Below, one piece after another: positions 18,600 to 62,785 of a stretch of 64,000 nucleotides of DNA. This stretch comes from a virus (lineage: Duplodnaviria; Heunggongvirae; Uroviricota; Caudoviricetes). Each line of letters begins with the position of its first letter. Within the stretch, counting starts at the first letter, position 1. A program made the position numbers and the translations under genes. The notes beneath the pieces are model-generated. The model saw nothing but the letters and a program-made list of their open reading frames with translations. It was not told the DNA's origin and ran no database searches. Where the stretch lies: the IMG/VR virus record IMGVR_UViG_3300033489_000001, positions 190,023 to 254,022 of that record; one strand, 5' to 3'.

Positions 18600-19412
18600 T
18601 TACTTTAAGAAATCTTTTGAATTTACTAAATGCATACCCCGCTTTTCCATTTCACGGAGCCACTGTTGCGACATTGTCGGGAAATCCGCACCAGGTACAG
18701 CAGCTATTGAACTGGTGCAATCAGTGAGGATATGGAACTTCTTGATGTGCTCTGGACCGATGTTATCGGCAATCTGGGTTACTGTTTTTCTCAAACAGTG
18801 GCTTAACGCTTCCCCGGCAGCGAGTACAATGTCTGCTTTCTCTAGCATTTCTAGGAAAGGGGTGTTGAGTGACGTTGTAGGATCATCTGGGTCCGGAACT
18901 TCGGCCATTAGAGCACCGTAATGCTCAGTCCACGGATTCGATCCTTTGGTCACGTAATTGACCATACTGAATTCTTTATCTGACCACTCTTGTAGAACCT
19001 CATTGAGTGCCGCGTGTATGTTATGTCCTGGTGTACCAATCAAACAATGTGGGTTCCAGATCTGGAGCTTGTAGGTACCTTGTGCTTCTAACTGTTGTGT
19101 GTATTTAAGCGAACGTGCCCTGGCCTCTTGCGCTCGTGGTGTCCAGATACCGTTAGCAACATCGTCGGCTGAAATAAAGTCAAACGGATTCGGCCGTTTA
19201 CCTGAACTATTCACCCACCAAATCGGATGGGCAATGTCGATTAACCGGTGACTATCCATTGTGATGTGGATATCATCGATTTTTTTCATATTCCTTCTGA
19301 CAAAGACTGCTAACCGGTCCATGTCAGCATTAGCACCTTTTACAGGCAGTGCTGAATCGCCAAAATCGCAGAAATCATACTGTGGATCAATTACTAATAG
19401 ATCGATCTTCAT
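18600..19412 (-). CDS. Nicotinamidase / isochorismatase-family cysteine hydrolase
   Basis: VIDPQYDF, DSH, WNPHC, KGSNPWTEHY, AGEALSHC. Confidence 0.9.
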   Translation of the reverse strand: MKIDLLVIDPQYDFCDFGDSALPVKGANADMDRLAVFVRRNMKKIDDIHITMDSHRLIDIAHPIWWVNSSGKRPNPFDFISADDVANGIWTPRAQEARARSLKYTQQLEAQGTYKLQIWNPHCLIGTPGHNIHAALNEVLQEWSDKEFSMVNYVTKGSNPWTEHYGALMAEVPDPDDPTTSLNTPFLEMLEKADIVLAAGEALSHCLRKTVTQIADNIGPEHIKKFHILTDCTSSIAAVPGADFPTMSQQWLREMEKRGMHLVNSKDFLK

Positions 19413-23341: not shown

Positions 23342-24589
23342 TCAAACTAATAACCTTTCGGTTCTTAGGTCAAGATTTAATTCCGATTCTTGCTTCATAA
23401 AGGACCGCCCTCGACCATGCCCTGCCCCTTCGGGGCTCCCGGCTTTGGTCTCCGGTCTTACGTCCTCTCCACAAGCATTTAGTGTCTCTCGATACCTTAG
23501 AGCGACATTTCTTAGGTTTATTGAGGCATTGGCGTCGCGATCATGTACCGCCCCGCAAGAGGGGCATACCCATTCGCTCTCGCCAAGAACCAATTCTTTG
23601 TAGATATATCCGCAACAAGAGCACGTCTTGCTCGATGGAAAAAACCTGCCCGCAAGGGCAATGTTGCTTCCACTGAGCTTCGACTTGTATTCTACCTGAC
23701 GATGAAATTCATAAAAAGCTGCATCTTGAATCGATTTAGCTAACTTATGATTCTTAAGAATCCCTCTTACATTAAGATCTTCTATCCCTATAAATCGGAA
23801 AGTTCTGACCAGCTTAGATGTGATCCGATGCCAAACATTAGATCTGATCTGAGCTACTTTCCGATGAGCTTTGGCAAGCCGAAGGCAGGCCTTTGCTCGA
23901 TTGGATGAACCCTTCTGCTTCTTACTCAGAGACTTACTAAGAATCCTTATTTTCCTCTCAGCTTTTCTAAGAGGTTTAGGGTTCTCAATCTTTTCTCCAG
24001 TAGAAAGAGTAGCTAGGGTTTTAATACCAACATCTACGCCCACCGCGTCTTGGCTATCGCACGCATGGGCATAGACAAAGGTTTCATCCGGGATTTGAAT
24101 TGAAAAAGAAGCAAACCATTTGTCAACAGATCTTGAGATTACAACTGATTTAACCTCTCCTTTGAATCGAAGAGATTGAATCATCTTAATAGGCTTCTTT
24201 AGGAGAGGGAGTTTTAGGTATTTTCCTGTTACTTTGAAATCATTCTCTCCTACATAAAATGAATCCTTAGACTTACCCTTCTTCTTGAATTGAGGGTACT
24301 TAGATTCTTTTTTGAAGAATCTTTTGAAAGCATCTCCTAAATTTTGAATAGCTTTTTGAGGAGCCCACTTAGAAACTTCTCTAACCCAAGGAAATTGATC
24401 ATCCTTAATTGAGTTGAATTCCTTAACTAAGGAGTAACCTGACATTCCTTTTTCACTTTGAGAGTATTTATCCTTCCAAGTCTTCAAAGCCCAGTTATAG
24501 GCAAATCTTGCCGTACCGCTGGCCTTACGCAAGTAGCGTTCGGCCTCTTGGTTGGGGCAGAGTTTGATCCTATGAGCTAATTGAGGCAT
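23342..24589 (-). mobile_element. tnpB: Solo TnpB (IS200/IS605/IS607 OrfB), RuvC intact; omega-RNA expected over the 3' end
   Basis: N-terminal HTH (RIKLCPN..GTARFAYNWAL), VGVDVG, IEDL, CxxC..CxxC, DRDANASINL; no tnpA nearby. Confidence 0.93.
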
Positions 24590-24638: not shown

Positions 24639-24926
24639 TTAAATGGAAGTTTGATAGTTTGAGTCCTGAATGCCTACGCTGGCGATTATCCATTCGCAGG
24701 ATTCTCGACTTCTATTTAGGGGATTCATCCCCAGATATAAGCAACAGAACTCGGAGATTCCAAACCCACCTCTAGAGGCGAGACACTCTAATGACTGCCG
24801 TGTTCCGAATAATTTTACATATGTCTCGTATGCTTTCTCAGCCTCACACCATCTGATCGTGCCCCCTCGCTGTATTGGGAATCGTCTGTCATTACTTTTT
24901 AGGCTTGGTTTTAACTCAGTGCTCAT
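24639..24926 (-). CDS. Hypothetical protein
   Basis: ORF preceded by a CGGTGTAACAAT promoter-like motif. Confidence 0.6.
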   Translation of the reverse strand: MSTELKPSLKSNDRRFPIQRGGTIRWCEAEKAYETYVKLFGTRQSLECLASRGGFGISEFCCLYLGMNPLNRSRESCEWIIASVGIQDSNYQTSI

Positions 24927-25180: not shown

Positions 25181-26107
25181 ATGAAAATTTTATATGTAAC
25201 CGACCTCCATGGGAATGAATGGAAATATGAAAAGACCTTAGAGGTGGCTCTCAGAGAAAAGGTCTCTTTGGTGATCAACGGTGGGGATATGCTCCCGTTT
25301 TTGGATTCTTTGAAGAAGGTCTATCCGGATGACTTTATTACAGAGTACCTAACTGATCACTTTCATCAATTTGATAGGGCCAAGATTCCCTACCTCTGTT
25401 TTCTTTGCAACGATGACTTGCGTATTTATGACTCAATTTTCGATAGTGTGTGCTCGGATTTTGAACACGTAAAAAACATAGCTCAGCGAAAAGTAGAATT
25501 TTTAGGCCATGAGTTTATAGGGATGAACTTGGTAAATGATTACCCTTTCAGACTTAAAGACAGATGCCGCTTAGATTCTAAAAAAGATCACGCTTGTGCA
25601 AGACAATTTGGAACGGCATTACTTTCAGACACTAATTCTACTGACAGAGGCAATCCGTTCATCACCATAAAAGATTATAACGCTTATCTAAAAACCATCC
25701 TGACAATTAAAGACGAATTAGATAAACTTCCTACGCCGCGTGATCCAAAAAAGTGTTTTTACGTTATTCATGTTCCTCCTTACGGATTAGGCTTGGATGT
25801 GTGCGGAGACGGTAGAGAAGTGGGCTCTTACTCGGTTAGAGATTTTCTCCAATTAGGACAACCGGCCTTTGCATTGCATGGCCACATTCATGAATCCCCG
25901 AGAGTTAGCGGAAAGTGGTACGCTCAGCTTGGAGAAACGCTTTGCATTCAACCCGGACAATACCCTATGCAACCACCTAAGAAGAAAGAATTCTTAGATT
26001 ACTATCTGACTTATGTATTGATCGACCTAGAAGAACAAACCATCGAGCGGGTTGACGAACCGGAATGCCAGGCTAAAGCTAGTATATTCAAATATGCCTC
26101 AAGATAA
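25181..26107 (+). CDS. Calcineurin-like metallophosphoesterase
   Basis: TDLHG, GGD, CNDD, HVPP, HGHIHE. Confidence 0.9.
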   Translation: MKILYVTDLHGNEWKYEKTLEVALREKVSLVINGGDMLPFLDSLKKVYPDDFITEYLTDHFHQFDRAKIPYLCFLCNDDLRIYDSIFDSVCSDFEHVKNIAQRKVEFLGHEFIGMNLVNDYPFRLKDRCRLDSKKDHACARQFGTALLSDTNSTDRGNPFITIKDYNAYLKTILTIKDELDKLPTPRDPKKCFYVIHVPPYGLGLDVCGDGREVGSYSVRDFLQLGQPAFALHGHIHESPRVSGKWYAQLGETLCIQPGQYPMQPPKKKEFLDYYLTYVLIDLEEQTIERVDEPECQAKASIFKYASR

Positions 26108-27205: not shown

Positions 27206-27338
27206 CGGTTGTTATCACGGGGCCGGTGAGCAAACGTGTTTTTTGAAAAAATTTGCTTTTTTATTTGACAGGCGGTTTTTTTCGGTGCATTATTACCCGG
27301 TAACGTAAAAACACCTTTTAGAGGTGCAATTTTCAGAT

Positions 27339-27416
27339 ATGAAACAGAACAGACAGATTTCGCCGATGCCCGTAGGGCCGCATAGCTATCCAATAGATAG
27401 CTTTATTCGGAACTGA
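27339..27416 (+). CDS. Leader peptide 1 MKQNRQISPMPVGPHSYPIDSFIRN upstream of tRNA cluster 1
   Basis: Follows TTGACA(27265)-N17-CATTAT; 19 of 24 sense codons after the start are read by tRNAs encoded at 27573-36774. Confidence 0.6.
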   Translation: MKQNRQISPMPVGPHSYPIDSFIRN

Positions 27417-27572
27417 TCCGTCTCAACTGTAGGCGGGTCAAAAAGAACCCGCCACGAAACACTTGCTATTTCTCGGCGGGGGATGTGAAAGGAGAAAGCA
27501 AGATGTTTGAACGTTCACCACAATTACCCGGTCACCCGTGCATTTCGAGGCACGGTGCAATCAGCGTATGAC

Positions 27573-31788: not shown

Positions 31789-32883
31789 CAAATGAAGATC
31801 GAACCAATCCCACAAGTTCAAAAAACAAGACATTGTCCCAGGTGTGGTATTGAAGTTACGCCTAGAACCGAGTCTTGTCCTTCATGTAAAAAGGTCCTAT
31901 TCGCTAGAAAATATTCAGTGCAGGCTAAAGCTTTCGGATACCTCTTTGGAGCCCTAATAACGCTTGCTAGCGTGGAAAGGTTTGTAAGAGGATTCAACGA
32001 TCTGAATGAGATGGCAGTGGCGGCCGTAGTGGTTGTTTCGTTTATTGGACTATCAAGTGCCAGGTTTGTACAACTTCTGATGCCACAAGATTTAGCCGTT
32101 TGGAAGCCGGTTCAGCATTCAATAAGGCCAATTCAACATTTGATAAAAAGATGTTAGGGTAAATGCCCCCTCTACCTAAAATGACTTTAAAACCAGGTTG
32201 CACAGTTCATTTCCAAGGTTGGGGTAACTACTATACTAATCTTAAAACACTCTTACATGAAGCTAAAGAAGGTTATGTGGAACTCAAAGGAGAAGGTGAA
32301 CTATTTTGTGTAGATAACCCTCAAGAGCGTCTTATTGGATTTCAACTATACATCGCTAATAAGGTTGTTTGGAAGACGTGGGATTTTATGATTGGTATAG
32401 ATGACTTCAAAGCTTGTGTAAAGAAAGATCCACGTCTTGCGTATCTTGATACTACCAAAGGACGCCTAGAGTGGGCAGCTAAAATTGAAAATATGTTCCA
32501 ACTGGGCCTACCGAAAAGATCTTGAACATCTATTCCTTTCGGTGTAATAATAAGTACCATGAAACAAATTTTAATCTTAGCCTTTGGTTGTGCTCTTCTG
32601 TTCGGTTGCACTGAGCAACAGCGAGCGAAACAATTTGGCGGCTCTACTTCCACTGCCCTGCCTTGTGACCGTAAGCTAGAAATGATTACCTGGAAGGATT
32701 CTGACTTGTGGCTCCTTACAAGGCAGATGCGAGCGGGTGAAGAATCGGAAACGCATTCCTTTGTTGAAAGTTCAAACTTGGGCTTTGCAGAAGGAAAAAT
32801 CACAGTCACGGAATCTCGGTGCAGGTAAAAATCAATGTTGAAGGCTAAGTACAGATTGAGGCGAAGATCCCTAAATAGGTTTT

Positions 32884-32959
32884 GGGGGTGTAGCCTAGAG
32901 GATTAGGCACCGGTTTCCTAAACCGGCTTTTTACGTAGGTTCGAATCCTATCACCCCCG
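32884..32959 (+). tRNA. tRNA-Arg(CCT)
   Basis: Loop TTCCTAA. Confidence 0.92.
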
Positions 32960-32963
32960 CTAC

Positions 32964-33039
32964 GGGAGTGTAGCTCAACGGATTAGAGCGCCCGGCTTCT
33001 ACCCGGAAGATGAGGGTTCGATTCCTTCCATTCCTGCCA
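32964..33039 (+). tRNA. tRNA-Arg(TCT)
   Basis: Loop CTTCTAC; CCA. Confidence 0.92.
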
Positions 33040-35165: not shown

Positions 35166-36684
35166 TGGCATTTAGTCGGTGTAATATAACCGGGATGGAA
35201 ACCAGAGATTTACATCCAGATGAAATTAGTAACAAGAATCTTCTTGAGCATATCAGAGGAGCTGATGGGGGCTTACCTCCCACGTTTGTTGGGATGACTT
35301 TTGTTCGTCATGTTAAAGAAGGAAGAGGATGGGATTCTGAATTTGCATGGGCAATTTATATTAGTCACGATCCCTGTCATGATGATCATCGTAAACGCTC
35401 AGTACTAGGAGATGACCGCAGTACCGTTATTGCCTTTCATCGAAACAAAGGGATTTTCCGCATTATTGGACGGGAGCTGCCTAAAAAGTTAGCTTTGGAG
35501 CTTGCAAGAGGAGACCTGCCAAAGATTGGAGAACAACCTCCTTATACCAACGGCCGTTTGTTATATTTTTGGTTTCTTTATGACTGGGAATCCCGCGACA
35601 AGCAGCTCTTACTAAAGCCTCCTGGGCCTGATTATGTTTATAGACCAAATGAGAAACTTTACCGTTGTGTACTTGGAATTGATCCTCCTTTGGATAAGAC
35701 GATCGATGAGATCTTAGCTTCTGTAGAATTTGAAGAGGCTAAGACAAAAGAGCCCTTAGGCTCTAAGGAATTTTCCGAGTACCTCGCCCATCATCTATTT
35801 AGCGAGGTTCATAAATTTATGCCTCCGGAAACCTTTGGGTATGGGCTTCCTGGGATTCAATCCAGATTCTTTCGAGGTGAATCCGCATTCACATTGAAAT
35901 CAAAGTGGGGTAACTATATAGTTCAAGTCACAAAGATTCTGGACCCATCAAGTTAAAGGATTCCAAGAATTACGAACTAAGAAAGAGGTGGACTCATGTT
36001 ATTACTGACCCCTTGGGCGTGTATTATAGGCGCAATTGCTTTCATCGTTCTTCTCTTTTTGGTCGAGTTAGATCGTTTTGGTTTTGCCACGCTATTGATG
36101 ATTGCAACGATAGTGGCGGCTCAATACTTTCACATAGCCGATATTTTGGGATGGGTAAGTAAGAACTACGCTTGGACACTAGTTTACGTCATTGTTTATC
36201 TGATATTGGGAATAGGTTGGTCGATTGGAAAGTGGGTTTTATTTCTACGAAAGTTCAACCGGAAGCGGCTAGAAGCTGTTTCTGCTGTACAGTCAACCGC
36301 AAAACAAGAAGACCCTCCAACACAATCTGTAAAGGATATTTCCGTCCACTTGAAACATGAGATGTATAAGGGGACTTATTTATCACAGAGACCCAAGGCA
36401 TCGGACTACAAGGGGACAATAATCGCATGGATGATCTGGTGGCCCATATCTATGATTAGCACCTTCTTGAATGATCCCGTCAGAGAACTATTCAACATCG
36501 TCTATGACCAGCTCAGTGGACTTTATCAAACCCTCGCTGACAAGATCGTTTCAGATATTGAGAAGAAGTAAACCTCCCCGGTGAACCTAAAGGCTTGACA
36601 CAACCCTCGATAGGTGTATGATAGGAGATATGTTTTTCGGACGGGCCACAGAAAGCAGTACGCGCTCTGAGAGTAAAATCTTTC

Positions 36685-36774
36685 GGAGAGGCGACGAACA
36701 TTGGTGAGTCGTGGCATTTTGCTAAAATGTTGGGCGTAACTGTCCTGGGGGTTCGATTCCCTTCCTCTCCGCCA
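36685..36774 (+). tRNA. tRNA-Ser(GCT)
   Basis: Loop TTGCTAA; long variable arm; CCA. Confidence 0.92.
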
Positions 36775-38603: not shown

Positions 38604-39203
38604 ATGGCTATTCTAACTTTACAAGTGCCGGAAGAAACTGCACGAGTTTTACGAGAAATTCCAGTTCCAGGAAACCAAGAAAAAGATGAAGCTCACGTTA
38701 CGATCCTATTCTTCGGAAAAGAACTACCAATTACTCAAATCAGTTCTATGCTTCCAGTGATCTATGAGATTACTTCAAAGACACTTCCCTTTTCTGTGTC
38801 AACCAATCACATTTCAACTTTTCCATCGGGAGCCGATGGTGTCCCAGTTATTGCAAGATTAAACTCCCCATCTTTACATATCTTTAGAGAGACGCTATGT
38901 AAAGCTTTCGATGATGTGGGTCTGTTCTACGATACTAAATTTAAAACATACAAACCGCACTTCACCTTGGCGTATGCCTCCGATCCTAAGACGACCGTAG
39001 GCATTGACATCCCTGAAGTGTCTTGGGGCGCTCACGAAGTAGTTCTTTGGGGGTCCGACCAAGGCACCGGGCGGCTAATCATCAAGTTCCCCCTGAGCTT
39101 ACCTGAGGGGAAGGTTTCAACGCTCAGAATGCCCCAAGAGTCTGTTTTGTACCGATCCTTTGTGAAGCTCGCTAGGTACGGCAAATTTAGTAAGGTTGCT
39201 TGA
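38604..39203 (+). CDS. 2H phosphoesterase / LigT-like 2',3'-cyclic phosphodiesterase
   Basis: Two HxT motifs: AHVTI and PHFTL. Confidence 0.85.
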   Translation: MAILTLQVPEETARVLREIPVPGNQEKDEAHVTILFFGKELPITQISSMLPVIYEITSKTLPFSVSTNHISTFPSGADGVPVIARLNSPSLHIFRETLCKAFDDVGLFYDTKFKTYKPHFTLAYASDPKTTVGIDIPEVSWGAHEVVLWGSDQGTGRLIIKFPLSLPEGKVSTLRMPQESVLYRSFVKLARYGKFSKVA

Positions 39204-41413: not shown

Positions 41414-41509
41414 ACTAGAGGTAAAGAATAGAAGCTTTTGTTGGAAACATTACAAAAGCATAAAAAACGCTTGACAACCTTCTCCCCTTAGTCTAGTCTG
41501 ATAGACAGT

Positions 41510-41593
41510 ATGTTTCAGCGCCTTTCAGCTTCTCTCCTTCTATCTTTATCATTGCTTTTAACTAAGCTGCGAGCGCTCCCGTCTATCCACTAA
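41510..41593 (+). CDS. Leader peptide 2 MFQRLSASLLLSLSLLLTKLRALPSIH upstream of the Leu/Ser tRNA cluster
   Basis: Follows TTGACA(41471)-N17-TAGTCT; 10 Leu codons (all six types) and 5 Ser codons. Confidence 0.8.
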   Translation: MFQRLSASLLLSLSLLLTKLRALPSIH

Positions 41594-41640
41594 TCTAGTC
41601 CCTAGCGCCCGCAGCAGCCCATAACCAGGGGCTAGCACAA

Positions 41641-43131: not shown

Positions 43132-43173
43132 AAAATAGTTCTTGAATTTTTCCTCTCTCCGGTGTAGTAACAA

Positions 43174-45435: not shown

Positions 45436-46542
45436 ATGGGCAAACCTATTAAAATATTTGCTGACAATCCTGATCCGGCTACAATGAATCAATTCTATGA
45501 GGCAATGAAGCAAGATAGTGCGGTTCAGGGAGCGATCATGCCAGACGTTCATAAAGGATATACGCTTCCTATTGGATCGGTCGTGGCCACGGAGGGTATG
45601 ATTTATCCTGCATGGGTCGGATACGATATTGGGTGTGGTGTATGCGCAACCCTGACTAGTTTTGACAAGAGAGAGATAGACATTCATCGTGAAGCAATCT
45701 TCAAGAAAATTTACGAAACGGTTCCCATTGGGCTTGGGGTGCATCATGCGAAGATTCAGGAACCGTGGGATACTAAACAACTTCAGCATACAAAAAAGCT
45801 AGCTACCATCTATAAGGACAAGCATGGGGAGCTACAATTAGGGTCGTTAGGGTCAGGTAACCATTTTATTGAGGTCGGATACGATGAAAATGATGGGATC
45901 TGGGTCGTTGTTCATAGCGGTTCTCGTGGGGTTGGCCATGGCGTTGCTTCTCACTACATGGCATTAGCATCCGGGGGAGGCCAAAAAGAATGGCACTTTG
46001 GGTTAAAAACCGACAGTCAAGAAGGTCAAGACTATATTGCTGATCTAGATTTCTGTCTTGCCTTTGCACTTGAAAACAGGCTCAGGTTATTAAACAGCAC
46101 TATAGCTTCAATCCAAACCTTTTGTTCCGGTGGAAAAGGGCTAAGCTCAGAACTTATCAACCGAAACCATAATCATGCTGTACAAAAAGATGGTAGATGG
46201 ATCCATCGAAAGGGGGCTACTCATGCTGAGGAAGGGATGTTTGGTGTTATCCCTGGAAACATGCGCGATGGTTCTTTCATTGTTATAGGAAAAGGCAATC
46301 CAGAATCTTTATGCTCTAGCTCTCACGGTGCTGGTAGAGTAAAAGGTCGAGCAGAAGCAAAAAGAACCATAACACTAGAGCATTTTCAGGATCAAATGAG
46401 AGAGGTTACGGCTAGAGTTGATGAAACCGTCCTTGATGAATCTCCAGGCGCTTACAAGAATATTTTTGAGGTTATGCTCCTTCAAAGAGATTTGGTAGAA
46501 GTGCTGCACAAAGTAAACCCAATGATTAACGTCAAAGGATGA
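45436..46542 (+). CDS. rtcB: RtcB RNA ligase
   Basis: MPDVHKGY.LPIG, VGYDIGCG, LGSGNHFIE, HSGSRG, HNH, HRKGA, SSSHGAGR, DESPGAYK. Confidence 0.96.
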   Translation: MGKPIKIFADNPDPATMNQFYEAMKQDSAVQGAIMPDVHKGYTLPIGSVVATEGMIYPAWVGYDIGCGVCATLTSFDKREIDIHREAIFKKIYETVPIGLGVHHAKIQEPWDTKQLQHTKKLATIYKDKHGELQLGSLGSGNHFIEVGYDENDGIWVVVHSGSRGVGHGVASHYMALASGGGQKEWHFGLKTDSQEGQDYIADLDFCLAFALENRLRLLNSTIASIQTFCSGGKGLSSELINRNHNHAVQKDGRWIHRKGATHAEEGMFGVIPGNMRDGSFIVIGKGNPESLCSSSHGAGRVKGRAEAKRTITLEHFQDQMREVTARVDETVLDESPGAYKNIFEVMLLQRDLVEVLHKVNPMINVKG

Positions 46543-46907: not shown

Positions 46908-47957
46908 ATGAGTGACAATAGAGCTTTAGCAACGATTAGGCGGGTGGCCTCCATAGAAGTCATTCCGAATGCCAATAACATTGAACTAGCTCATATTGAC
47001 GGATGGCAATGTGTTGTCAAAAAAGGAGAGTTCACTTCCGGTGACCTTGGCGTTTATTTTGAAATCGACTCTTATTTGCCAATCGAACCTCGGTACGAGT
47101 TCTTACGTAAGTCTTCGTATAGGAAGCTACCCGAGTTAACTGACAGGCGTTGCGAAGGTTTTAGACTTCGTACGGTTAAGCTCAGAGGCGCTTTATCACA
47201 AGGCTTGCTGCTACCTCTATCTACGTTTCCTGAACTAGATAATGCAGAGGTTGGCTCAGATGTAACCCAGACTCTCAATGTAGCCTTATTTGAGCCTCCA
47301 ATAGATGCATCTCTAGAGGGTAAGGTCAAAGGCTTATTTCCAGGGTATCTCCATAAGACACACCAGGATCGCATACAAAATGTTCTAGAATATCTTACGC
47401 TATATAAAGATGAGTTGTATGAAGTAACAGAAAAGATAAACGGCACATCAATGACCGTGTTGTATAACAAGGGCTACTATGGTGTGTTTGGTCACGCTAT
47501 GGAATTCTGTCTCGATACTCCTAACGCGTTCATTAGAGTAGCTGAAGCGTTAGGTATCGAAAAGGCTCTAAGAGCGCTAAACAAGAATATAGCTATCCAA
47601 GGTGAGCTTGCTGGCGAGGGTATCCAGGGAAATCCCTTGAAGATTAAAGGGCATAAGTTTCTAGTGTTTGATATTTGGGATGTTGATACATGCAAGTACT
47701 TTACAGCGGTAAAGCGTAACCTCATACTAAGAGAGCTTGTTGACGTAGGACTCAAACTAGACCATGTGCCTGTAGTAAAGATTATGTATCTCAGAGATAT
47801 TCCGGAGCTAACACTTGAGAAATTATTAGCATTTGCTGATGGCATGTCTTTGATTAACCCAAAAGTACGTAGAGAGGGCGTTGTCTTCAAGTCTTTTGAA
47901 AACGTAGATGTACCATCATTCAAAGTTCTCTCGAATGATTACTTGCTACACGAGTGA
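46908..47957 (+). CDS. ATP-dependent RNA ligase, Rnl2/DRB0094 type
   Basis: VYFEIDS, TEKINGTS (motif I), QGELAG, VFDI, REGVVFK, FKVLSN. Confidence 0.92.
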   Translation: MSDNRALATIRRVASIEVIPNANNIELAHIDGWQCVVKKGEFTSGDLGVYFEIDSYLPIEPRYEFLRKSSYRKLPELTDRRCEGFRLRTVKLRGALSQGLLLPLSTFPELDNAEVGSDVTQTLNVALFEPPIDASLEGKVKGLFPGYLHKTHQDRIQNVLEYLTLYKDELYEVTEKINGTSMTVLYNKGYYGVFGHAMEFCLDTPNAFIRVAEALGIEKALRALNKNIAIQGELAGEGIQGNPLKIKGHKFLVFDIWDVDTCKYFTAVKRNLILRELVDVGLKLDHVPVVKIMYLRDIPELTLEKLLAFADGMSLINPKVRREGVVFKSFENVDVPSFKVLSNDYLLHE

Positions 47958-48743: not shown

Positions 48744-49697
48744 ATGGATTTTAAAGCAATAGCTGAGAAAAATAAGATCCTCGAAATTCAAGTTGGTTCC
48801 CACTTGTTTGGAACTAACACGCCGGACAGTGATTTGGATTTAGTAGGCATCTTTCTGCCCTCCGAAGAGATGGTTTACGGTTTTCAAGAATGTGACGAAG
48901 TGGACCTGAGCATAGTGGCTAAAGATGAAACCGGGCGAAATACCTCGGAAGCTATTGACCGAAAATATTACGAGTTCCGAAAGTTTGTTCGCTTGGCTAT
49001 GCAGAATAACCCAAACATTTTGCATGTGCTATTTGTAGATCAGAAGAACATTGTAGCTATCAACCAGGCTGGAAAAAGACTACTAGCCAAGGCCGAGCTT
49101 TTTCCTCACAAAGGAGCGCATCACCGGTTTGTCAAATATGCCGATGGGCAACGACACAAGATGAGGATTAAACCCGAAAACTATGCCAAGTTGGAACAAG
49201 GACTAGAGGTTCTCAGTAAAGTAGACCCTCACATGGTTTTAGGTGAACTACGCAATACCCCTCCCTTTGTTGATAAGGGTAAAGGGAGGCATATTTGCTT
49301 AGGCGACTTGAACTTTGAGGCTGGAGTATACGCAAAGAAAGCCATTGGGATGATCAAGACTCGGTTAAGCAAAGCTACGAGCCGGGTTCAGCTCTATACA
49401 AAATTTGGTTTTGACGTGAAATTTGGATCAAATCTCATCCAGCTTTTGAAAGAAGGCATTGAGATAATGAACACGGGGCGGATTGTGATGCCTTTAGCTT
49501 ACCGGCAAGACATCCTGGATATCAAGCAGGGGAAGTATTCCGTGGAAGAGATTTTGAAGTGGGCCGACGATTTGGTTGAGGAAGCCAGGGGGGCTTATGA
49601 AACGTCCAAACTGCCCACCGAACCCCGTAGCAAAGAGATTGAAGCCTTCGTTATGGAAGAAGTGAGAGGCTTCTTGACGCGATCCCTAATATGCTAA
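48744..49697 (+). CDS. Pol-beta-family nucleotidyltransferase (RlaP-like)
   Basis: GSHLFGTNTPDSDLDLVGIF, NNPNIL..LF, K..SNLIQLL. Confidence 0.85.
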   Translation: MDFKAIAEKNKILEIQVGSHLFGTNTPDSDLDLVGIFLPSEEMVYGFQECDEVDLSIVAKDETGRNTSEAIDRKYYEFRKFVRLAMQNNPNILHVLFVDQKNIVAINQAGKRLLAKAELFPHKGAHHRFVKYADGQRHKMRIKPENYAKLEQGLEVLSKVDPHMVLGELRNTPPFVDKGKGRHICLGDLNFEAGVYAKKAIGMIKTRLSKATSRVQLYTKFGFDVKFGSNLIQLLKEGIEIMNTGRIVMPLAYRQDILDIKQGKYSVEEILKWADDLVEEARGAYETSKLPTEPRSKEIEAFVMEEVRGFLTRSLIC

Positions 49698-53280: not shown

Positions 53281-53697
53281 ATGAAAATTCTCGTGATTGA
53301 CGATGTTCAGCTAATACGGGAATGGTTTTTAGACGTTCTCGAACCGTTAGGCCATGAAGTTCGGCTGGTGGCGGATGCCGAGTCAGCTCTTGACCAATTC
53401 CATGAGACAAGGTTCGACCTGGCTTTTTTCGATCACGACCTTAGTGGCAAAATGAACGGATCACAGCTTGCTAGTCAGATTTTAGAGCACCCCAAAAAGT
53501 ATAAGCGTCCACGTCTTGTTTGGGTTCACTCTCACAACCTTAACGGGGCTCTTAACATCGAAGCCAAATTTAAAGCCGCCGGAATTGAATGCTGGTTAGA
53601 GCAATACATCCATTGCATCGGCTACAAGCAAGATTTCAAGAACACGGTTGAAGCGCTCCTAGAGGGCAAGCCCATACCGTCAAGAGAGTTCAGATAA
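53281..53697 (+). CDS. Receiver-fold protein, cyclic-phosphate-processing (cREC) type
   Basis: VIDD, FDHDLSG, VHSHNLNGA (DHDL and HSxN signature). Confidence 0.7.
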   Translation: MKILVIDDVQLIREWFLDVLEPLGHEVRLVADAESALDQFHETRFDLAFFDHDLSGKMNGSQLASQILEHPKKYKRPRLVWVHSHNLNGALNIEAKFKAAGIECWLEQYIHCIGYKQDFKNTVEALLEGKPIPSREFR

Positions 53698-56564: not shown

Positions 56565-56908
56565 AACTAAAACTTGAACTAATCCCGCTTCCAGTGTAGT
56601 AATAGATATGGACGCTGCTGACAATTATAAAAACCGTCTGATTGAAAGTGGGGACCTAAACGGGGCCATTCATTTCTGTGTGAACAATATGAAACGCGAT
56701 TATGCCGCTGCCCGTGAAGAGGTCTATAAAGCCCACTACGCGGGGAAGGGTTTACCTAGGCCTACTGAAAAGTACGTTGGTTATTAGTCCCACTCATTAA
56801 GTAGGTGGGCTTACTTTAATTGATGACTCATTCTGTAAAAGAAGATAAGGCATCAATTAGGTAGTATTGTTCAAAAAGAATGAAAGTCAAAAAGCAAGCG
56901 GAGTAAAG

Positions 56909-57250
56909 ATGGAGCAAGCGGTTCTTATATCGGTCTTCGATCTTGCGGGGCCGGAATGCTGGATGGACACTGACGGGCAACTCCTTTATGATAAGTTCGT
57001 TCCACTGCTTCGGGAAGGGAAAAAGGTAGCCCTGTCTTTTAAGTACGTGGAGATGATCACCCCCACGTTTCTCAATGCCGCCATTGGCCAGCTTTACAGT
57101 GAATTCACCGAGGAGCAGATTCGTGAGCTGTTATCGGTAACAGACTTGGGGCCGGAAGACCTGGCTGACCTAAAGAAGGTTGTGGATAACGCTAAGAGGT
57201 ACTTCGCCAGCAAAGATAAAAAATCTTGTGCTTTTTCTATTGACAAGTAG
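56909..57250 (+). CDS. STAS-like (DUF4325-type) protein
   Basis: DGQLLY..L.EG.KV.LSF..VE.ITPTFLNAAIGQLY. Confidence 0.8.
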   Translation: MEQAVLISVFDLAGPECWMDTDGQLLYDKFVPLLREGKKVALSFKYVEMITPTFLNAAIGQLYSEFTEEQIRELLSVTDLGPEDLADLKKVVDNAKRYFASKDKKSCAFSIDK

Positions 57251-57279
57251 AAAGCGTTACGTCAGACTGAATCAATAAT

Positions 57280-57399
57280 ATGCGCACCCAGCTCACAACG
57301 ACCCTGACCGTGACTACAGCAACCCGCTGTACGGTCGTCGTATGCGCTGCGGCTGCCGCTACAGGTACCGGGCCTCTGGCTGCAATCATCTGGCGATAA
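57280..57399 (+). CDS. Leader peptide 3 MRTQLTTTLTVTTATRCTVVVCAAAAATGTGPLAAIIWR upstream of the Trp/Cys/Gly/Val/Ala/Thr tRNA cluster
   Basis: Follows TTGACA(57240)-N17-CAGACT; 28 of 39 residues are T, A, V, C, G or W. Confidence 0.82.
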   Translation: MRTQLTTTLTVTTATRCTVVVCAAAAATGTGPLAAIIWR

Positions 57400-57417
57400 T
57401 CCCAAGCCAGAATAGAT

Positions 57418-57488: not shown

Positions 57489-57714
57489 CTAGCAGGGGTT
57501 GAACCATCGAATTGAAGGTGATGGAAGTGAGCATGAGCCCTAACGATCAACAGAAAATAGACTGTTCCTGGTATGAATGGCTCTCTGATTTATCACCCTT
57601 ATTTAAGCTCGCTATAGCTCTAGGGCTGGTTGCATTTACCGTATGGATGGCTTGGAGGCACTTATGAACAAACGAACGACTGGACCGTTGTGTAGAAGCT
57701 CTCGGATGGTTTTT

Positions 57715-58514: not shown

Positions 58515-59899
58515 ATGACTAATAATACAATTACAAATTGTGATGGCAAAGCTACTATTTACATCGAGTCTAAGTTCGAAACACATTGTCCATTATGCAA
58601 AGCTGAATATATAAACCACCAGCATCCTATGAAACCAGCAGGCGTTATAGGCTGGCGTAGTTGTAAATGTACATTTGAGACAAAAGAAGTTACACCAGGC
58701 GTATCTATCATTACACAAATTCCACCTAAAGCACCAGATACACAAGGATAAGGTCCTGCTACCGGCTCAAGTTGATTTCCAAAAATTCGGTGTAATACTT
58801 TAGCAATTACCTATGTTCATCACATTGACCAAAGATTTTTACGAAAAGGTTTACACCCTTCTAGTTGAACAAGCTTGTGCAGAACCCTCATATAAGGAAG
58901 ATTTCATCCGGTACTTCACAGACCCAAAGGAACATTTCCACACCTTGGAATGGCGGTTCCAGGGAAGGTTTGGTTTTGGGGGTAAATTCTGGCGTCAAAG
59001 CATAGGCCATAAAAGAGGGCCAGAGGGAGAAGGCGTTACTATTTACACGCACTATATCTCCTACTATCCCGAGAATTACACTAAAGAGTTAGATAAGCTG
59101 GCCACCGAAATTAACGAAAGTTTGATGAAGCTTACATGGGAAAATAAAATCGTTCGGATGGCGTTACTAGTCAAAGAGTAAGTATGGTCGAACGAGATCC
59201 TAACTCATTCCTTTTGTTGTTATAAATGTATTGACAGTGATTTTTAGATCACTGTCAATACCAAGAGAGCAATATCTGTTCAAAGAATTTCACTGGTTTC
59301 AATTACTGGTTTCAACCGCCTTCGATGATTAAAGTAGCTGAAACCTTTTTACTGCTTTTGCATTCAAAAGTCTTACTTAGAAAGATCGCAAGGGCAAGTC
59401 AAATTTTTAGGACGGACATCAATAAGGCCATCCGTCCGGTCCATGTCCAAAACGTCGCTTTGTTTTCGTTTCTAGCTAATATTGAAAAAGATCAAAATAG
59501 TGCTAAATAAGCATTATGAAAATGATGCTGTTAGGACTTGTGTTTCTTGCTGATGTGGCGTCCCCCGGTTCTTGCCTTTGTAATCGTAGTTCTGAAGAAG
59601 AGGAAGGCGTACCCGTTCCTGAATATACAGTAACTATCTCAATTCCCAGCTGTTCGTGCTTTAAAGATAATGCGGCTTGGGTTTATGTTTATAATGGAGA
59701 AGCCGGGGATTCCGAGCATTACAATCCAAGTTTTCAGACGATAGAGATCTTTTGCAATCAAAAATTATCAGGTGATGTTCAAGTCAAAGAAGGCCTTCAC
59801 GAAATTCAGGCTCTTACCTCCAAGGGTACTTATGCATCACGGGTTATCGAAGTAGTACCAGATGGGGGACCCCGCGAAGTAAACCTAACTTGTCCATAG
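58515..59899 (+). other. Hypothetical CDSs (58515-58751, 58813-59181, 59516-59899)
   Basis: ORF track; 59516 has a signal-peptide-like N-terminus. Confidence 0.55.
59229..59260. other. Perfect 13-bp inverted repeat containing TTGACA on both strands
   Basis: TATTGACAGTGAT-TTTTAG-ATCACTGTCAATA. Confidence 0.8.
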
Positions 59900-60032
59900 G
59901 TAGGTTTCTCAAAAAAATTGAGCTAAGCCAAAAAATTGATTGACAAGTCTTTGCTTTGGCTTCAAACTACTTGATAATCAAAGTTAGCTCGCCATCTTTA
60001 AGAGCGAGACAAACTGATCCTTTAGCCAACAT

Positions 60033-60092
60033 ATGTACCAACAACGACAACAGCGAGAGCAAGAACGGGAGCGACGCCAACAGCGTCGCTAA
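60033..60092 (+). CDS. Leader peptide 4 MYQQRQQREQERERRQQRR upstream of the Glu/Gln/Arg tRNA cluster
   Basis: 17 consecutive CAR/GAR/CGN codons; TTGACA at 59940 upstream. Confidence 0.85.
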   Translation: MYQQRQQREQERERRQQRR

Positions 60093-60106
60093 TACTCGTA
60101 GCTCAC

Positions 60107-60182
60107 GCACCTGTCGTCTAGTCTGGTTTAGGACACTGGCTTTTCACGCCAGCAAACACAAGTTCAAATCTTGTCGGGTGCG
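60107..60182 (+). tRNA. tRNA-Glu(TTC)
   Basis: CTGGC-TTTTCAC-GCCAG. Confidence 0.93.
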
Positions 60183-60189
60183 CCGGAAG

Positions 60190-60225
60190 GCTCCTATCGG
60201 CTAATCTGGTAGGCCGCTAGGAGCA
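60190..60225 (+). pseudogene. Internally deleted tRNA (acceptor stem plus D arm only)
   Basis: GCTCCTA-TC-GGCT-AATCTGGT-AGGCC-GC-TAGGAGC-A. Confidence 0.6.
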
Positions 60226-60229
60226 TTAG

Positions 60230-60301
60230 GCACCTGTCGTCTAAAAGGCAGGACCCCGGACCCTCAATCCGACAATACGAGTTCGATTCTCGTCAGGTGC
60301 G
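60230..60301 (+). tRNA. tRNA-Glu(CTC), C33
   Basis: CGGA-CCCTCAA-TCCG. Confidence 0.9.
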
Positions 60302-60306
60302 CTGAT

Positions 60307-60377
60307 TCGGGAGTAGCACAATGGCAGTGCGGTAGACTCTGGATCTATTAATGTTGGTTCGATTCCAGCCTCCCGAG
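60307..60377 (+). tRNA. tRNA-Gln(CTG)
   Basis: Loop CTCTGGA. Confidence 0.92.
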
Positions 60378-60384
60378 CCGGTTT

Positions 60385-60456
60385 GTCTCTGTAGATCAAC
60401 GGATAGATCTTCGGTCTACGGAACCGACAATATAGGTTCGAATCCTATCAGAGACG
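60385..60456 (+). tRNA. tRNA-Arg(ACG)
   Basis: Loop CTACGGA. Confidence 0.92.
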
Positions 60457-60468
60457 CTGAGAGTCTTT

Positions 60469-60541
60469 GCCCGTGAAGCTCAAATGGATGAGCCCTTGCT
60501 TCCGAAGCAAGAGGATGGAAGTTCGAATCTTCTCACGGGTG
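60469..60541 (+). tRNA. tRNA-Arg(CCG)
   Basis: Loop TTCCGAA. Confidence 0.92.
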
Positions 60542-60553
60542 CTTGAAAACTAT

Positions 60554-60627
60554 TCGGGCGTCGTTCAAAGGTAGGACACCGGTCTTTGACTCCGTTAATG
60601 TTGGTTCAATTCCAGCCGCCCGAGCCA
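60554..60627 (+). tRNA. tRNA-Gln(TTG)
   Basis: Loop CTTTGAC; weak anticodon stem; CCA. Confidence 0.87.
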
Positions 60628-60757
60628 GTAGACCTGTTTACAAGAAAGACAGGTCTGTTACAACTAGATTCGTCTCTCTCAATAGAAAAGGAAGCCCCAC
60701 CATTTCTACCTCTTCCACTACTGAATCTTTTTATAATTATTCTAGGGTATACCCTAA

Positions 60758-62197
60758 ATGAAAGCTAGGATCAGTTATGTGGCTTTAGAAACTAACTCTG
60801 GAAAGATCCAGAAGTTAGAAGAACTTTATACTATTTATAGGTCCTATGTTCAAACTTGTATTGACAAGATGATTTCGGATAAGAGCCCTAAAGTTCTCCC
60901 TTCAAACCGTAGAACCTATTTTCCAACTTCTGATATTTTAAGCTCTCAAATTTTAAAAAATGCCCAAATGCATAGTGTCCAAGTTGTAGAAACTTGGATC
61001 AAACAACGTTACGCTCACAAACTTAGGAAGTACTTAAATACTCAAGATCTAACTAGCCATCAAAAACTAGAACTTCGTTGCATAGGAAAATATCAACTCA
61101 AAAAGCCGGGTAAGTTCGGTAAAGGAATCATCTCACAAGAGATGATTGACCTTTATTGGGGTTGGGTTTGGAATCCTGAGATAGCTGGGAAAACCCCTCA
61201 AATCTCTGAATCTTTTCCGATGTGGATGTCAGAGATGACTTGTGTTTTTGGATCTTCCGAAGATTCAAGTCACTTTGGTTGGTGGCTCAGATTCTCTTCT
61301 TTGCAAAACGGAGTTAGGATTCAGATTCCTTTAGCTTATAACCCCTATCTCAAAAAGGTTGAAGGTTTAGCAAAATCTGTTTTAGTTAGGAAGCGTGAAG
61401 GCCGTTGGACTTTTCAATTTTGTGAGAAAGATCTTGAGGAAGAAAACGAAGAGGAAAAAAAGCCCAAAGAATTTGATGGCTCTCAAGGCAAAATAGGGAT
61501 TGATGTTGGATTAAACGTTATAGCTGCTACTTCTGATGGAAGGCTTTATGGGGAAGCTTTCAAATCAGAGTTTGACTATCTTTACGCCAAGGTTAGAAAC
61601 CTAAGATCCAACCGATTTAGGCAAGGACTCAAGAGTGATTCAAGAAGACTTGCTAGATTGGAAGTAAAGCTCTCGGGTCAAATTAAAACTATTACAGGAA
61701 CTATCTCTAACCAACTTGTCAAGGCTTACCTTAATTATACCTTCGTTATTGAGGACTTAGACTTAAGAGGTTGTAGGGGACAAAAGCGCTTCGCATATAG
61801 AGCGCTTCATTCTTCCTTAAGCCATAAGGCTAAGATTGAAGAAGTAAACCCCGCTTATACTTCTCAACCGTGTCCCTCTTGCGGTCATATTTCCAGGTCT
61901 AACAGATCTGGGGTAAAGTTTATCTGTCAGAACTGTGGCAGAAGATCTCATGCTGATGTGATTGGAGCGATCAATTTGCTCGGACGTTCCGGGGACAAAC
62001 AAATTGATCGTTGTGAAGATCCATCGGAAGTAAGAGCCCTTCTAAGAGAGCGAAGCCTACTTCGTAGGATCAGTTCCTTGGATCGGCTTAAAACAAAAGA
62101 GCTGAAACCGAACAGCCAGAGGCTTACTACCAAGGGATCTGAGAATTCAGACGTTGGCACAGCCTCAAATCAGGTAGAAGCTCATGTGCAAGTTTGA
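60758..62197 (+). mobile_element. tnpB: Second solo TnpB-like RNA-guided nuclease (479 aa, divergent N-terminus)
   Basis: IGIDVG, VIEDL, VNPAYTSQPCPSCG, CQNCG..HADVIGAINL; no tnpA and no adjacent CRISPR repeats. Confidence 0.88.
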
Positions 62198-62696: not shown

Positions 62697-62785
62697 GGGA
62701 TCCTCCTCTTATTACTACACCGGAGCCCCATAAAATTCAAGTTTTTCTTTCTAAATTAAATCTTTTTCTCAACGGAGGTTAGCCT

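Follow-up and report, generated by a model that had tools for sequence, protein, structure and literature searches.

Match between a leader ORF and the tRNA cluster behind it

In the tRNA array of a huge soil phage, a short open reading frame (ORF), termed here leader 4, is made up almost entirely of codons for the three amino acids carried by the six tRNAs encoded immediately downstream. This match is real and lies far beyond chance. Leader 4 was located on the plus strand at 60033–60092 of the window, the whole stretch of 64,000 nucleotides that was analyzed, with its ATG at 60033, its TAA at 60090–60092 and the translation MYQQRQQREQERERRQQRR. Its 19 sense codons comprise Met and Tyr followed by 17 consecutive Gln, Arg or Glu codons (60039–60089), after which comes the stop; CAA is used five times, CAG twice, GAA once, GAG twice, CGA three times, CGG once, CGC twice and CGT once, and AGR is never used. 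The cluster begins 15 nt beyond the end of the ORF with tRNA-Glu(UUC) (60107–60184) and continues on the same strand with tRNA-Glu(CUC) (60230–60302), tRNA-Gln(CUG) (60307–60379), tRNA-Arg(ACG) (60385–60457), tRNA-Arg(CCG) (60469–60542) and tRNA-Gln(UUG) (60554–60627). All six were detected by both ARAGORN and Rfam, with Rfam scores of 52–64 bits, and an Rfam E-value search of positions 59850–60700 returned these six tRNAs alone, with no match to the T-box (RF00230) or any other family. The initial annotation had described a leader of 17 consecutive Gln/Arg/Glu codons with a Glu, Glu, Gln, Arg, Arg, Gln series of tRNAs behind it, and both the codon list and the tRNA series (60107–60627) were verified. 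It had also placed the AGR-reading tRNAs 27 kb away, which agrees with the position of the Arg(cct) and Arg(tct) genes at 32884–33039, 27 kb upstream of leader 4.

The first tRNA of this cluster is set apart from the second by a spacer of 45 nt, compared with 4–11 nt for the other spacers, and the spacer contains a 12-bp hairpin (60190–60224, plus strand, z −2.6). The first tRNA of cluster 3 (Trp) also stands off from the rest, at a distance of 225 nt, and a hydrophobic ORF of 51 codons (57512–57667) lies within this gap. Cluster 4 ends with an 11-bp hairpin devoid of a U tract (60629–60657, plus strand), and about 130 nt past its last tRNA begins one of two TnpB/IS605 OrfB-like genes (60758–62197; the other at 23342–24589).

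The genome is a single contig of 411,618 bp that encodes a terminase large subunit, a portal protein and a type I-C-like Cascade, a combination by which we assigned it to the huge phages. Within the window, a tmRNA and the 36 tRNA genes detected by ARAGORN all lie on the plus strand, at 27.5–60.6 kb, and are interleaved with RNA-repair genes and with homing endonucleases (HNH, NUMOD3 and LAGLIDADG). The array is embedded in an RNA-repair island that spans positions 25181–53697 and includes a metallophosphatase (25181–26107), a 2H/LigT-like phosphoesterase (38604–39203), RtcB (45436–46542), an RNA ligase with a PHA02142 OB domain (46908–47957), RlaP (48744–49697) and a cREC receiver domain (53281–53697). 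The presence of this island and of the tmRNA around the array fits a phage that expects tRNAs to be attacked. The operon to which a tRNA gene belongs (27573–60627) follows its amino acid or codon box, with Arg-CGN kept apart from Arg-AGR and Ser-UCN from Ser-AGY. No tRNA-Asp was present in this phage, while relatives (G001, G002, G004, G005 and G007) do encode one. A perfect 12-bp inverted repeat (TTGACAGTGATC ... GATCACTGTCAA, 59231–59258) lies between the ORFs at 58813–59181 and 59516–59899, and might serve as an operator or form a hairpin at the end of a transcript.

A search of sequencing runs recovered the stretch only in DNA runs and contigs, from the likely source sample and from a second soil study, and no RNA run containing it was found among the sequencing runs listed. 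As an identical 154-nt piece recurs in the second soil study, we consider the DNA to be real. A 160-nt contig from the source sample matched the start of the leader (60028–60080) over 53 nt with 6 differences and then diverged; it could derive from a related leader of another phage in the same soil, or be a low-complexity match.

Matched leaders in front of two further clusters

In none of the six frames of the 411,618-bp genome was there a Q/R/E run to equal the 17 codons of leader 4, the runner-up being R10. Among 2882 short ATG ORFs, leader 4 ranked first for its E+Q+R content (0.94, versus 0.50 for the next one), and its agreement with the amino acids of the next tRNAs gave a binomial p of 6.5 x 10−13.

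Two sister units with the same layout were identified on the plus strand. Leader 2 (unit at 41471–41640) has a TTGACA promoter, an ORF at 41510–41593 (MFQRLSASLLLSLSLLLTKLRALPSIH) and a stop codon located in a hairpin loop, and directly precedes five Leu and two Ser tRNAs. In the unit of leader 3 (57240–57417), a TTGACA promoter is likewise followed by an ORF (57280–57399, MRTQLTTTLTVTTATRCTVVVCAAAAATGTGPLAAIIWR) with its stop codon in a hairpin loop; this ORF is rich in Thr, Ala, Val, Cys, Gly and Trp codons and directly precedes tRNAs for Trp, Cys, Gly, Val, Ala (two) and Thr (three). Leader 3 ranked first among the 2882 short ATG ORFs for W/C/G/V/A/T (p = 6.1 x 10−9) and leader 2 ranked fourth for L/S (p = 1.7 x 10−5). 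When leaders were cross-tabulated against clusters, the table was diagonal, each leader matching its own downstream cluster.

As an empirical null, 12 other phage tRNA arrays were scored identically (five from relatives, five from GenBank phages, one from an IMG/VR contig, and that of Bxz1). None exceeded a −log10 p of 3.5, compared with 12.2, 8.2 and 4.8 for leaders 4, 3 and 2, respectively. Elsewhere in the phage, neither of the leader 1 candidates (27324–27416 or 27503–27571) matched its own cluster significantly, and the same was true of the ORF at 32835–32906, in front of the Arg-AGR, Asn and Lys tRNAs. At 36595–36707, a TTGACA-16-TATGAT site precedes a lone tRNA-Ser(GCU); the ORF starting there uses AGY, which this tRNA reads, for three of its four Ser codons, a bias that was not significant (p of about 0.08).

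With seven Arg, seven Gln and three Glu among its 19 residues and a hairpin adjoining its coding region, leader 4 could be taken for an RNA-binding peptide of the arginine-rich type, exemplified by the motifs of lambda N and HIV Rev, that acts in trans on a tRNA or on the hairpin irrespective of its codons. Such a peptide would leave the sister units out of account, as the peptides of leaders 2 and 3 are hydrophobic and have nothing in common with that of leader 4 save for the match to their own clusters; the relatives of the phage, moreover, lack it. We regard this explanation as extremely improbable.

The initial annotation had further claimed that the match is at codon level and not just at amino-acid level. 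In leader 4 this claim is suggestive: all 17 codons of the run are decodable by the six tRNAs of the cluster under strict wobble rules (p = 0.048 given the codon usage of the phage), and the run draws on every one of the eight possible codons while AGR is absent (p = 0.013). These values are marginal, and the same test applied to leaders 2 and 3 gave p = 0.17 and p = 0.53, so that the robust signal is the one at amino-acid level.

Promoter-like sites and predicted translation starts

A promoter-like site was found upstream of leader 4 at 59940–59968 on the plus strand, consisting of TTGACA (59940–59945), a 17-nt spacer and CAAACT (59963–59968), with an A-rich tract upstream. It had been missed by a consensus scan because of its weak −10 hexamer. 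The arrangement TTGACA-N17-NANNCT with an upstream A tract is common to leaders 2, 3 and 4 (starting at 41471, 57240 and 59940), and at the site of cluster 1 (27265) the second hexamer is CATTAT. The TTGACA hexamer itself occurs genome-wide at chance level. The ATG follows the −10 hexamer after 10–11 nt in leaders 2 and 3, which thus look near-leaderless, and after 65 nt in leader 4, which has a predicted 5' UTR of about 58 nt and is not leaderless. No Shine-Dalgarno sequence was found before the AUG of leader 4; such sequences were detected at 41% of the long ORFs of the phage, versus 8% of random positions.

A second promoter class was also apparent, in which about 15 pyrimidine-rich nucleotides separate CTTGAAT from GGTGTAGTAAT, and an ATG usually follows after 5–6 nt. 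The genome has 35 copies of this class, those in the window being at 43161, 44100, 44356, 45421, 51421, 53720 and 54949 on the plus strand and at 62721 and 11767 on the minus strand, and it precedes RtcB among other genes. The existence of this class beside the TTGACA promoters of the tRNA operons suggests two transcription programs.

The missing Shine-Dalgarno sequence is one of the points that would favor an untranslated RNA or DNA element serving as the binding site of a protein, for example a repressor or an Hfq-like factor. Such a site could consist of three CAACARCGN direct repeats or, in the +1 register, of an (ARN)n run, and the Q/R/E frame would then be a by-product. Within the ORF, CAACAACGA, CAACAGCGA and CAACAGCGT do recur at 60039, 60048 and 60078, and the only published conditional tRNA array, the trn operon of Anabaena, is governed by a repressor acting on 9-nt direct repeats (PMC8421152, PMC10272220). 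That L-array of Anabaena PCC 7120 carries supernumerary tRNAs, is linked to rtcB and is induced by impaired translation, and its repressor TrcR binds 9-nt direct repeats covering the −10 box and the start site (PMC8421152, PMC10272220). By reading the sequence we found no repeats over positions 59963–59980, the only 9-nt repeats (CAACARCGN) being those inside the ORF. The Anabaena array also differs from that of the phage in that all its tRNAs belong to a single operon, that no leader ORF is present and that the tRNAs are not sorted by amino acid. An untranslated element would leave unexplained both the exact framing of the run by an ATG and a TAA and the agreement of its residues with the six tRNAs that follow. 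Nor would it account for the match of leaders 2 and 3 to their own clusters, as such repeats are missing there. We therefore consider such an element very unlikely.

A hairpin at the stop codon of each leader

In predicted folds of the leader 4 transcript, a small 5' UTR hairpin (59982–60015, plus strand) is followed by 37 unpaired C/A-rich nucleotides (60016–60052) that contain the AUG, and then by an imperfect hairpin of about 20 bp (60053–60108, plus strand, z −4.2). The 5' arm of the latter corresponds to codons 8–15 and is joined to the spacer, and the base of the hairpin overlaps the first 2 nt of tRNA-Glu. An 8-bp hairpin ending at the stop codon (60070–60090) had been reported in the initial annotation; it does exist, as the tip of this longer structure, with AGCGACGC (60070–60077) facing GCGTCGCT (60083–60090) and the stop codon at the end of the 3' strand of the tip. 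The hairpin was more stable than 99.8–99.9% of those formed by codon-permuted ORFs (p = 0.001–0.002) and than 96% of those obtained after synonymous recoding (p = 0.04). In leaders 2 and 3, too, a hairpin joins the last codons of the ORF to the spacer, and its loop contains the stop codon; these hairpins also exceeded codon permutations in stability (p = 0.001 and 0.008, respectively). The comparisons show that the stop-codon hairpin is under selection in leaders 2, 3 and 4.

A terminator scan of the plus strand detected no intrinsic terminator between leader 4 and tRNA-Glu; the hairpin is followed by ACCUGUCGU, without a U tract. Terminator-like sites were not enriched in the window or in the phage. 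Stepwise folding yielded the single hairpin only, with no competing antiterminator and terminator pairings, and a single hairpin with the stop codon in its 3' arm cannot by itself convert ribosome stalling into read-through or intrinsic antitermination. The stretch from 60009 to 60052 contains 13 C and 4 G, and in its excess of C over G the 60-nt segment ranks at the 89th percentile, a value partly forced by the codons.

The lack of a terminator, the 15 nt between the stop codon and the RNase P site, and the 2-nt overlap of the hairpin base with the start of tRNA-Glu could point to a post-transcriptional effect of a translated, codon-matched leader. Transcription would be untouched, and the position of the ribosome on the leader would determine whether the hairpin and the 5' part interfere with the folding of tRNA-Glu(UUC), its cleavage by RNase P or the stability of the precursor. 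An energy model was in line with this: the free leader 4 abolished the acceptor stem of tRNA-Glu, and a ribosome placed at codons 1–14 restored it. The initial annotation had likewise remarked that ACGACA complements the 5' region TGTCGT of tRNA-Glu, and the two motifs are indeed present (60044–60049 and 60112–60117). The anti-tRNA pairing that these would form, along with GUACC/GGUGC, was nevertheless rejected as a meaningful element, since the predicted acceptor stem was abolished equally well in 42% of cases by codon-permuted leaders and in 51% by fully shuffled ones; the complementarity was accordingly given no weight. In the same model, the effects of ribosome position in leaders 2 and 3 were inconsistent and did not go beyond those of shuffled leaders, the patterns being opposite across leaders 2, 3 and 4. 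Furthermore, such a control would reach only the first of the six tRNAs. In sum, a post-transcriptional effect of this sort seems unlikely to us.

Distribution of matched leaders among other phages

A search with the terminase recovered 20 IMG/VR loci at 63–81% identity, five of which, large relatives with 64–81% terminase identity, carry 39–51 tRNAs and a tmRNA each. The order of the tRNAs is common to these five and differs from that of the phage analyzed here, and the tRNA sequences diverge fast within the clade (about 60–80% identity). None of the five tRNA arrays contained a matched leader ORF. Conservation, proposed in the initial annotation as a check on leader 4, thus lends it no comparative support, the five terminase relatives being without such ORFs.

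Nothing beyond chance was found either in the seven further arrays (five GenBank phages, one IMG/VR contig and Bxz1). The IMG/VR contig, retrieved with an anticodon-loop pattern search for Gln-Arg-Arg, has 31 tRNAs that include a Gln-Gln-Arg-Arg-Arg cluster, which is preceded by an HNH endonuclease gene and not by a leader. The cultured Brevundimonas phage Kikimora (ON529857, L049) gave a borderline, non-significant score (−log10 p of 3.5). Two of its short ORFs, at 18633–18770 (TKLSHKLSLHSTAATALSTLAHAPATLSPKSP..., before tRNAs for Pro x3, Lys, Leu x4, His, Ala and Ser x3) and at 24697–24792 (MMTYRQNVQNIRVVRFY..., before Tyr, Val, Ile, Val, Gln and Asn), had null P values of 0.07 and 0.32, respectively, neither of them significant.

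Searches that started from other parts of the locus gave no related loci. None was found in IMG/VR through the ORFs at 59516–59899 and 56867–57250 or through RtcB, and the ORF at 59516–59899 had no homolog other than itself among 5.8 billion proteins. An exact 24-mer of tRNA-Glu had 0 matches in IMG/VR and 92 in metagenomes; about 50 of the latter fell in lone tRNA genes typed as Gly(tcc) by ARAGORN and the others had no tRNA call, and none of the 92 was in a tRNA array or resembled a relative of the phage.

Absence from the five relatives and from the seven other arrays is what would be expected of a recent feature of a single lineage, either functionless or with an effect too small for selection. 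The stabilized hairpin at the stop codon of each leader and the promoter layout common to them argue otherwise, as does the fact that three unrelated leaders match their own tRNAs, with p values of 6.5 x 10−13, 6.1 x 10−9 and 1.7 x 10−5. We know of no neutral process by which three unrelated ORFs would each come to be composed of the amino acids that the tRNAs behind it carry, and we find a feature of no consequence very hard to credit.

A possible gauge of tRNA supply

We lean, with slightly better than even confidence, towards a reading in which each leader ORF would act as a ribosome-borne gauge of the decoding of those codons that its own tRNA cluster serves; it alone explains all three units. 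A similar proposal in the initial annotation, that the leader ORF responds to the decoding of the matching codons, is partly supported: a delimited Q/R/E ORF between a promoter-like site and the cluster, the sister ORFs and the stabilized stop-codon hairpin speak in its favor, the codon-level signal does so weakly, and the ACGACA pairing does not.

According to this gauge model, leader 4 would be co-transcribed with the six tRNA genes from a host-type promoter and translated as a 19-codon sensor ORF for Gln CAR, Glu GAR and Arg CGN codons. Where decoding is fast, the ribosome would reach the stop codon, open the hairpin and depart, leaving the leader RNA bare. Slow decoding, as could follow from cleavage of the host Glu, Gln and Arg tRNAs by an anticodon nuclease or from a demand by the phage that outpaces them, would leave the ribosome parked in the 5' part of the leader, which is C/A-rich and unstructured. 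The parked ribosome would then bring about more full-length, usable tRNA precursor, and supply would be restored, if the sign of the response is as we suppose. Given that there is neither an intrinsic terminator nor a mutually exclusive pairing, the most likely output would resemble that of tnaC, the transcript being protected against premature termination of the factor-dependent (Rho) type, with a changed processing or stability of the precursor as the second choice.

The tnaC leader of the tna operon is the case of Rho-dependent control by a leader peptide known from the work of Yanofsky. Leader 4 resembles it in having no intrinsic terminator, and the resemblance might extend to the masking of a C-rich, G-poor, unpaired stretch, here the candidate at 60009–60052, by a ribosome stalled towards the end of the short ORF. 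The tnaC ribosome is arrested by its peptide plus a ligand, whereas the stall at leader 4 would be the slow decoding of many codons.

Leader 4 also resembles the attenuators of the trp/his type (trpL, hisL, leuL, thrL and the ilvL of ilvGMEDA), which have a short 5' ORF with a run of regulatory codons, ilvL and thrL being multivalent in the manner of leader 4 with its three amino acids. The trp-type 1:2 hairpin, too, has its likeness in leaders 2, 3 and 4, where the end of the ORF is joined to the spacer and the stop codon lies in or next to the loop. However, the GC-rich 3:4 hairpin with its U tract and the 2:3 alternative are both absent at leader 4, which also differs from the trp-type leaders in its lack of a Shine-Dalgarno sequence, in a run that fills the ORF (17 of 19 codons) and in what lies downstream, namely tRNAs themselves in place of biosynthetic enzymes. 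The logic is that of a multivalent leader-peptide attenuator that lacks two defining features, the terminator and the alternative pairing.

Of the published cases, two come closest: the Anabaena trn array described above, and the polycysteine leaderless sORFs of mycobacteria (Canestrari et al., bioRxiv 10.1101/834739), whose target is a ribosome-binding site. The mycobacterial sORFs are likewise unannotated short ORFs with consecutive sensor codons, each controlling its own operon. Leaders 2 and 3 share their near-leaderless geometry and leader 4 does not; in addition, the genes downstream of leader 4 are tRNAs, unlike those of the mycobacterial sORFs. T-box riboswitches are comparable in that they respond to the condition of a single tRNA species and regulate translation-apparatus genes, but they bind the tRNA directly, without a ribosome, and no Rfam match to a T-box was obtained at leader 4. 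In the literature we found no report of a leader ORF that controls or precedes tRNA genes.

More broadly, the array might constitute a demand-driven supply circuit, in which operons sorted by amino acid or codon box would each have a sensor ORF of their own that measures on the ribosome how available precisely those tRNAs are. A shortage, such as one caused by an anticodon nuclease of the host, would open the matching operon only, through a non-classical read-out (Rho-type, at the level of processing, or other) that would itself be new. We put this forward tentatively, as a possibility to which we give somewhat less than an even chance.

What phages gain from encoding tRNAs, and at what point these are expressed, has long been debated, with codon compensation and escape from tRNA-cleaving defenses as the rival answers (e.g. 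PMC10264068). If the gauge model is true, the expression of phage tRNAs would be conditional on tRNA shortage, which would favor the counter-defense or homeostasis view, and sensing by leader peptides would be extended from the supply of amino acids to the supply of tRNAs. The occurrence in one genome of three unrelated leaders that follow a common logic without a canonical terminator would then point to a read-out step not yet described, and the lack of matched leaders in the nearest relatives suggests that circuits of this kind emerge and disappear fast.
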